Positions 2 to 1,249 of a DNA stretch of 32,000 nucleotides are shown here, piece after piece (within the stretch, counting starts at the first letter, position 1; every line of letters begins with the position of its first letter). Position numbers and translations under genes: made by a program. Under the pieces are notes generated by a model. The model saw only the letters and a list, made by a program, of their open reading frames with translations, made no database searches and had not been told where the DNA came from. Origin of the DNA: an archaeon (GTDB taxonomy: Archaea; Asgardarchaeota; Thorarchaeia; Thorarchaeales; Thorarchaeaceae); assembly GCA_024275415.1 (NCBI GenBank), contig JAJRZD010000051.1, forward strand, positions 60,001-92,000, written 5' to 3'.

Positions 2-1249
2 TCCCGACTTAGAGAAAAACTAAAGGCACAGGAGATATTTCATAACGTTTTCTTTGACGATGACTTGATAGATTACGACCTCAAGATATTTGCGGCACTT
101 AATCTCGCTGACTTGATAATTCTAGAATTGCAGTCAACATGGAGTTCGGATGGACTATTGGAATTGGAGTCTGTACTAGAACGAATATCAAGATTGTCAG
201 ATAATCAAAATTCATACATCTTGTTAGCCAGAACCCTCTTGTTAAGAAGTAAGCTGGCGGTCATCAGGTCAAATATAGAAGAAGCGCTGTCATTACTTAC
301 CGAAACCGAAAAAATAGTCACAAAACATGGGCTACTTGCCCTTGCATTTGAGATATCAGAACAGCTCGATATAATTCTGAAACAAAAAGAAAGCTTGGAA
401 AAACACTCCCCTGCGATGAATGCCCAAGAACTCTTGAAACAATTAGTATTTGCTACTAGTCTGAAACGACTGCATATAGACGACTGCAAAAAGAAAATTA
501 CCCATCAATGTGAAATCCCAATTGTATTGGCATTGCTCTCCAAGGAGAATGGTAGAATCATATACACACACAGATTTCAATCAGCACAGGATGTGAATTC
601 TGAACTCGTTGAGTCATTCATTCAAACAATAGTACACTACAGTAGGAATTTACTTGAAAAAAACATATCAATCGGACGGATCGAGTTCCATGAACATACT
701 CTCATAATGGTGTCCTTTGATTCAATTCTCATTTCCTACCTTTTTGACGGCTCATCAGTTATGGCGATAGAACGACTAGAAAACCTTGCCCAAATGCTCA
801 TGGCACATATATCAATAAGGGAGCAGATTTGTAATGCGGGAATAGTCCTTGACCCTCATTCAAGAGGAAGACTTGCAGACTTGATTTCCGAATTGTTTGG
901 TTCGTACAAAGTTCAGGAAATGGAGATATCCTGTCAATCGTTTGAAAATGAAATTGATAAAAGGTTATTTGAATTCAAGAGTGTCTTGCACCCGGTACGT
1001 CTGGCGATTTTAAGGAAGTTGAATGCCCAGTATAAATGCTCTTTTGGGGATCTGAGGTATTCCATTGGAGTTAGTAAAGGTAGCATGAAATATCATGTCG
1101 AAACACTTGTGAAAGAACGCCTAATCGAATCTAGATATGAATTCATAGAAGCTAGACCAAGATTAGTCCTTTATCTTAGACCCGAAGGTGTCAAATACTA
1201 CGAAAACCTCCAAAGTGCCCTCAATGTGCTCTTCACCCAAACTATTTAA
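2..1249 (+). CDS. 5'-truncated multidomain protein: TPR-like helical repeats + longin/roadblock-like domain + C-terminal ArsR/MarR-like winged helix
   Basis: The frame is open from nt 2 (SRLREKLKAQEIFH...), so the TTG at 65 is not the true start. The helical segment (LLLRSKLAVIRSNIEEALSLL...GLLALAFEISEQLD) resembles Asgard TPR proteins. A beta-beta-alpha-beta-beta-beta-alpha pattern spans ~512-898. The wHTH motif LHPVRLAILRKL...SFGDL...VSKGSMKYHVETL...EG spans ~977-1228. Confidence 0.7.
   Translation, partial: SRLREKLKAQEIFHNVFFDDDLIDYDLKIFAALNLADLIILELQSTWSSDGLLELESVLERISRLSDNQNSYILLARTLLLRSKLAVIRSNIEEALSLLTETEKIVTKHGLLALAFEISEQLDIILKQKESLEKHSPAMNAQELLKQLVFATSLKRLHIDDCKKKITHQCEIPIVLALLSKENGRIIYTHRFQSAQDVNSELVESFIQTIVHYSRNLLEKNISIGRIEFHEHTLIMVSFDSILISYLFDGSSVMAIERLENLAQMLMAHISIREQICNAGIVLDPHSRGRLADLISELFGSYKVQEMEISCQSFENEIDKRLFEFKSVLHPVRLAILRKLNAQYKCSFGDLRYSIGVSKGSMKYHVETLVKERLIESRYEFIEARPRLVLYLRPEGVKYYENLQSALNVLFTQTI

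Follow-up and report, generated by a model that had tools for sequence, protein, structure and literature searches.

The question raised by this locus is what a protein that carries TPR repeats, a longin-like segment and a winged helix in one frame might sense, and which genes it might control. The original prediction, made from the letters of the window alone (the 32,000-nucleotide stretch of Thorarchaeota DNA analysed here), was of a one-component regulator that couples longin-type small-GTPase signalling to transcription, with two nearby phospholipase genes as its closest candidate targets. The reading we favour, with moderate confidence, is that the protein is a soluble one-component transcription factor, gated by a ligand, that activates nearby genes for secreted proteins.

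Domain architecture of the predicted regulator

The frame open at positions 2..1249 (+ strand) of the window comprises the last 415 residues (455–869) of an 869-aa ORF, obtained in full by recovering the upstream contig and starting 1361 bases upstream of the window (G000:C30:58640). Pfam gave a TPR_12 match (E 3e-43) and an HTH_34 match above cut-off at residues 786–862 (E 1e-7, 32.4 bits vs a cut-off of 27), and no match for the middle segment of the 869-aa protein; Fuz_longin_1 was matched weakly by 6/21 family members (best E 3e-4). In the full-length AlphaFold model (pLDDT 88, pTM 0.82), a long solenoid of 40-residue repeats, with about 15 helical pairs, leads into a longin domain and then, across a disordered linker (residues 756–771), into a C-terminal winged helix. 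As modelled, the protein is therefore a fusion of TPR solenoid, longin and winged helix, the order that had been predicted and that open frame, Pfam and model all confirm. Within the window lie the C-terminal part of the alpha-solenoid (2..484, + strand, residues 455–615, from sequence, Pfam and model), the longin domain (515..898, + strand, residues 626–753, from model, fold matches and alignment), previously placed at ~512–898, and a basic winged helix-turn-helix (959..1246, + strand, from Pfam and fold match), which is HTH_34/PH1061-like, has a net charge of +6 and a recognition helix starting SKGSMKYH. TPR repeats of 40 residues with an Asn ladder, that is, Asn at the equivalent position in successive repeats, occupy about residues 116–412, upstream of the window.

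The model of the longin part (built from 94 sequences, pLDDT 86.9) has the topology beta-beta-alpha-beta-beta-beta-alpha-alpha (E32–40, E46–51, H60–78, E85–89, E92–99, E102–109, H114–128, H145–166), which gives the longin order of a five-stranded sheet with one top and two bottom helices. It matched Sec22b with a Z score of 14.0 (rmsd 2.8, 124 aligned), and also VAMP7 (Z 13.4), AP mu/sigma chains and TRAPP longins. Eukaryotic longins (Sec22b, VAMP7, AP sigma/mu, TRAPP, Mon1–Ccz1) thus share its fold at Z 12–14 and rmsd 2.4–3.1, although identity is 7–15% and the Asgard domain is fused to a DNA-binding domain. A GAF or PAS identity for the middle domain had been named as the outcome that would sink the original prediction; the matches listed contained neither a GAF nor a PAS chain. 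A roadblock permutation, as distinguished from longin by published definition (PMC10933270), is excluded by the fold, which has no N-terminal core helix and has an extra C-terminal helix, and for which the best structural matches were longins. Nothing was found when the longin profile was compared with solved structures by sequence search, and an ESM Atlas feature search gave leads at 0.85–0.90 only.

The winged helix superposed on PH1061 (1ub9) with a Z score of 16.9 and rmsd of 1.3, and the idea of a one-component regulator is upheld. For the TPR part, the peptide-binding superhelices of APPBP2, LGN and Rap tied at Z 27–28.6 (Rap 4gyo, Z 27.6); RRNPP receptors were absent from the best 50 Foldseek matches and present on re-alignment, where Rap and NprR structures scored Z 25–27.6. 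Because of these ties and the Asn ladder, we propose that the TPR groove would hold an extended peptide, which would gate DNA binding.

The helix-bearing family and its candidate small-protein partners

A word-based homologue search recovered one relative, and an HMMER library search was needed for the rest, yielding about 20 protein clusters with both longin and winged helix (those with names being from Thorarchaeota, Heimdallarchaeota, Hodarchaeales and Kariarchaeaceae). The closest same-genus homologue sits in a cluster carrying the NCBI label Candidatus Thorarchaeota, and the host is accordingly taken as a Thorarchaeota archaeon. Metagenome scans gave no further orthologues, and no description of the TPR-longin-winged helix architecture was found in the literature searched. 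A profile match was present in 188/400 Asgard genomes, in nearly every case confined to the longin part, and longin and helix shared one frame in at least seven genomes (G000, G005, G096, G097, G100, G101 and G104), a lower bound with six candidates scored per genome. The helix-bearing clusters belong to a far larger TPR-longin family without the helix, of which one Asgard genome holds a tandem array of five paralogues (L030, G054:C148:9000–24000). Same-type terminal winged helices also end TPR proteins with no recognisable longin match (L033, L055, L056) and membrane or secreted-looking proteins (L057–L061).

Longin fusions in Asgard archaea have precedents: NPRL2-like longins are fused with two-component domains (Liu et al. 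10.1101/2020.10.19.343400) and adaptin-Vps28-longin proteins occur with TPR or HTH/PCI (PMC10936438). As in the present family, the longin has been shuffled into multidomain signalling proteins that are patchy across Asgard genomes, although the main text of both papers (10.1101/2020.10.19.343400, PMC10936438) contains neither the TPR-longin-winged helix order nor operators or peptide partners.

On a quick tree of the solenoid–longin part the helix-bearing forms clustered (2 changes, vs 19 with shuffled labels) and may have a single origin. Three Thor proteins (G000, L002 and G005), with 33–44% identity in their C-terminal part, formed one clade with support 100, and seven Heimdall proteins, from two genomes of one genus (G096, G097) and a metagenome contig, formed another with support 99; this tree did not demonstrate that the Thor clade and the peptide-linked Heimdall clade are sisters. 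In a further genome, one contig (G104:C270, L043/L048) carries an intact copy between an integrase-family gene and a DDE transposase gene, together with a partial second copy of 186 aa (longin end and helix) directly 5′ of a phospholipase C (PLC) gene, an arrangement that suggests mobility or decay.

All 7/7 checkable Heimdall-clade copies had a same-strand ORF of 60–75 codons upstream of the regulator, encoding a hydrophobic helix followed by an acidic or Pro/Gly-rich tail. In the only orthologous pair, identity was 78% for the receptors and 56% for the small proteins, whose tail was the most conserved part (15 of the last 19 residues). The dyad CTCGT-N5-A(C/A)GAG lay exactly 11 bases before the TATA box in 4/6 peptide promoters, and a tandem pair of such dyads, one of them 11 bases before TATA, lay 5′ of a gene for a secreted protein of 235 aa in the neighbourhood of one regulator. 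Genome-wide, the pattern occurred 9–18 times per genome, no more than the control, and in the window's genome it was found at chance level only. The remaining two peptide promoters, those of the divergent copies L051 and L052, had no CTCG dyad; near TATA both carry CATTCCTAA in one orientation or the other. Neither peptide nor motif was seen at nine TPR-longin genes that lack the helix (three of them from G097), by a filter that missed some genes. There was no peptide gene at the window locus, at the other Thor loci or at six other Heimdall-type loci, and when the whole of the window's genome was filtered for small peptide-like ORFs, four hits resulted, none on the regulator's contig.

Complex prediction for one Heimdall receptor with the tail scored 0.58, against 0.24 for the best control, with partner pLDDT of at least 45 and contact agreement of at least 67%. 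This is weak support: the mark was reached by 58/80 solved and 2/110 mismatched pairs, but scores of 0.60 or less that reached it came from only 7/80 solved pairs and yet from both mismatched passers. For the Heimdall clade, the ligand would probably come from the small protein whose gene lies immediately upstream, in the form of its Pro/Gly-rich tail, and the operator in the peptide gene's own promoter would close a feedback loop.

Such an arrangement recalls the RRNPP(A) systems of Bacillota (PlcR-PapR, NprR-NprX, Rap-Phr), of which PlcR-PapR combines a TPR protein that regulates phospholipase C with a peptide gene next to it (PMC5007282). Likenesses are a TPR solenoid joined to a DNA-binding domain, a superhelix whose fold could hold a peptide, control of secreted enzymes (proposed here) and, in one Heimdall clade, an adjacent small peptide gene. 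RRNPP(A) receptors are, however, defined by five or nine TPRs and an optional N-terminal HTH (PMC12700828), whereas the Asgard protein has about 15 helical pairs, an inserted longin and a C-terminal winged helix. An adjacent propeptide gene, present beside every checkable Heimdall-clade copy, is missing at the window locus; RRNPP(A) peptides are exported, processed and re-imported, whereas the predicted topology signals of the Asgard small proteins are mixed; and the host is archaeal rather than a member of the Bacillota. It is possible, though we hold it tentatively, that the family as a whole runs a peptide-gated, quorum-sensing-like circuit, the window copy having no peptide gene of its own; under this reading the Thorarchaeota copy would sense such a peptide from another source. 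Equally tentative is the suggestion that Asgard archaea built a peptide-gated activator from their own TPR-longin proteins, independently of RRNPP, with a small membrane-targeted protein as source of the Pro/Gly-rich peptide for the TPR groove, the longin as relay and both peptide and secreted-enzyme genes switched on. The literature searched contained no description of an archaeal transcription factor in the cytoplasm that receives a peptide signal.

The small proteins could instead be single-pass anchors, whose cytoplasmic tails tether the regulator until proteolysis or a competing ligand frees it. K/R clusters directly follow the hydrophobic helix in three of the six complete small proteins, which suggests, as judged from the residues, a cytoplasmic tail rather than export, and the conservation of the tail in the orthologous pair fits tethering as well. 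However, one small protein has basic residues before the helix (signal-peptide-like) and two have acidic tails, the window locus is without such a gene, and no dedicated protease gene is conserved nearby, leaving tethering an unlikely explanation.

The longin domain and small GTPases

Longin/roadblock domains are GTPase platforms, and the top helix of the longin, alpha1, is its dimer and GTPase face (PMC3747258). GTPase platforms of the GEF/GAP kind dimerise through beta3/alpha1 and bind the small GTPase on the alpha1 side. The true longin fold is in favour of the original model, in which the domain binds an Asgard small GTPase and relays its nucleotide state to the winged helix. Against this, no small GTPase gene was found near the regulator in the roughly 15 helix-bearing loci read, and the alpha1 motif GGFLxAI, conserved in 49 parent proteins (G73 G69 F92 A92 F98 %), is eroded in 17 helix-bearing proteins (G29 G18 F53 %, with Ala outside the common residues); in the window protein, alpha1 reads VESFIQTI. 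In about 15 loci of the helix-less family, read with flanks of 1–1.5 kb, no TPR-longin gene stood ahead of a Rab-like GTPase gene either. Neither observation on the helix-bearing forms is decisive: Asgard genomes seldom place a GTPase gene and its regulator in one operon (PMC10933270), so missing linkage is weak evidence, and helix-bearing proteins have longer branches than the parents, so part of the motif loss may be general drift. Eukaryotic longins have GTPase, SNARE or coat partners, of which none is in evidence for the Asgard domain. Coupling to a small GTPase is thus unsupported, with no such neighbour in the loci read and a degenerate alpha1 face; the residue comparison and gene maps appear to weaken the model, which we regard as decidedly unlikely.

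Under the ligand-gated activator model, the longin would have been inherited from the TPR-longin parent family and would serve as hinge or dimer spacer rather than as GTPase platform. If true, this would put the longin fold to use outside GTPases and membrane traffic, and would bear on the reading of Asgard ‘eukaryotic signature’ domains as trafficking machinery.

Candidate operators and target genes

Directly 3′ of the regulator is a gene for a Zn-dependent PLC family protein (1405..2361, + strand) with a signal-peptide-like N-terminus and a Pro-rich C-terminal tail, its probable target. Three independent loci have a Zn-PLC family gene immediately 3′ of the regulator: the window, the JGI locus L002 and, after the partial copy, G104. 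Roughly half of the Asgard genomes carry Zn-PLC genes, each with one copy or a few, so three such adjacencies are unlikely to be due to chance. In G005 an unrelated secreted protein follows the regulator, with a subtilase two genes upstream, and in other Heimdall-type loci the neighbours are mixed. The second PLC gene of the window (2833..4104, − strand) encodes another Zn-PLC family protein, with TSP3-like repeats and a Pro-rich tail, and its promoter (4105–4291) has no dyad of the Thor type described below. The forecast of phospholipase targets is supported for the adjacent gene, by its position in three loci, and finds no such support for the second.

The candidate operator is an imperfect 15-bp dyad, GTTCGGATTCTGTAC (1289..1303, no strand assigned), with 5/7 arm pairs, at a position common to the other two Thor copies; a non-canonical TATA-like box, TATTATTA (1314..1321, + strand), lies 10 bases 3′ of it. 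The three Thor downstream spacers compared share GGWTTC-NN-WAC, ten bases, then TATTATTW, with 6/7 arm pairs in L002 and 3/7 in G005. Their best three-way ungapped match has 17/33 invariant bases, a figure also reached by only 1/1300 other upstream regions of this genome. The genes that follow the element are not homologous (PLC in two loci, the unrelated secreted protein in G005), and the genome's closest match to the L002 PLC, on another contig and without a regulator, has an ordinary TATA box and no dyad, indicating that the element tracks the regulator rather than the enzyme gene. In a leave-one-out scan the window dyad was the weakest (8.1 bits, genome rank 4 with the TATA part), and much of the signal is the shared TATA-like box. 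As the element was spotted by eye before testing, in only three loci, we treat it as a candidate. Elsewhere in this genome (G000:C37:16333, L109 about 1334) the Thor dyad has another intergenic match, followed after ten bases by an AT-rich box; it lies 70 bases 5′ of a 234-aa gene, CARF-like by eye, which may be a second target.

The recognition helix starts PWGN/SWGN in the Heimdall clade and SKG/TKG in the Thor clade, a difference that matches that between their dyads and counts in favour of the operator reading. From the conserved dyads we infer that the winged helix binds DNA sequence-specifically. Archaeal activators bind upstream of BRE/TATA, and TFB-RF1 (PF1088) recognises TCTG-N5-CAGA (PMC5937170), likewise a short dyad that lies a set number of bases ahead of a weak core promoter, although TFB-RF1 is a small stand-alone factor whereas the Asgard DNA-binding domain is the C-terminal end of a proposed sensor of 869 aa. 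On the model of TFB-RF1 (PMC5937170), a dimer of the regulator would bind the dyad at 1289–1303, just upstream of the BRE and weak TATA box, and help TFB/TBP to load, activating the gene for the secreted Zn-PLC. A speculative candidate for the ligand of the window copy is found in the secreted proteins encoded next to it, namely their Pro-rich tails. In two clades the family would offer matched sets, in which a receptor is joined by its candidate operator, its target gene and a candidate peptide. We know of almost no Asgard transcription factor with a proposed operator.

Very unlikely, by comparison, is that the winged helix is a protein-interaction module (cf. NPRL2, PCI, ESCRT-II) and that the bases common to the promoters are core promoter. 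A role as trafficking adaptors has been proposed for Asgard longin proteins that carry HTH/PCI and TPR (PMC10936438), and the Thor dyad is imperfect, but the domain passes the HTH_34 cut-off, its best matches are archaeal MarR/ArsR-type regulators, it is basic in all 17 helix-bearing members (+1 to +6), and in two clades the spacing between dyad and TATA is constant.

A divergent promoter of 145 bases, which separates the regulator from a secreted-looking gene of 167 aa without Pfam match, contains two adjacent inverted repeats, with 7-bp and ~11-bp arms (L001 about 13558–13604; G000:C30 about 58558–58604; z −2.2). A DNA-binding repressor or autoregulator, acting for example at these hairpin-like repeats, is highly improbable: MarR/ArsR-type domains are mostly repressors, but the repeats are unlike the common dyad and are not conserved in other loci, and dyads upstream of BRE/TATA are in activator position.

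Inverted repeats upstream of both PLC genes had originally been put forward as binding sites. The one at 4115..4140 (− strand) is real, a hairpin with 9-bp arms immediately 5′ of the second PLC gene's ribosome-binding site (9/300 shuffles, RNA z −3.1), while that at 1364..1398 (+ strand) is an imperfect leader hairpin at chance level (74/300 shuffles, RNA z −1.3). As operators both were rejected, having no common sequence and being sited in leaders, downstream of the TATA-like boxes; for the 4115–4140 hairpin, a role as RNA leader element is likelier than one as operator.

Further features of these neighbourhoods were recorded. Pro- or Pro/Gly-rich tails, like those of the small Heimdall proteins, are frequent in secreted proteins beside regulators (window 2250–2361 and 2833–2900; L023:12503–12560; L048:14420–14457). 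In G005 a long duplicated segment (L023:12200–12500 and 14377–14560) is shared by the promoters of a 170–186-aa secreted protein and the subtilase, and a 482-aa multi-HTH regulator adjoins both genes. Divergent from the second PLC gene of the window is a gene for an Eco57I/TaqI-like N6-adenine methyltransferase (4292–6061). GC content drops from 47% genome-wide to ~39–40% at G000:C30:58000–62000, which would fit an accessory island.
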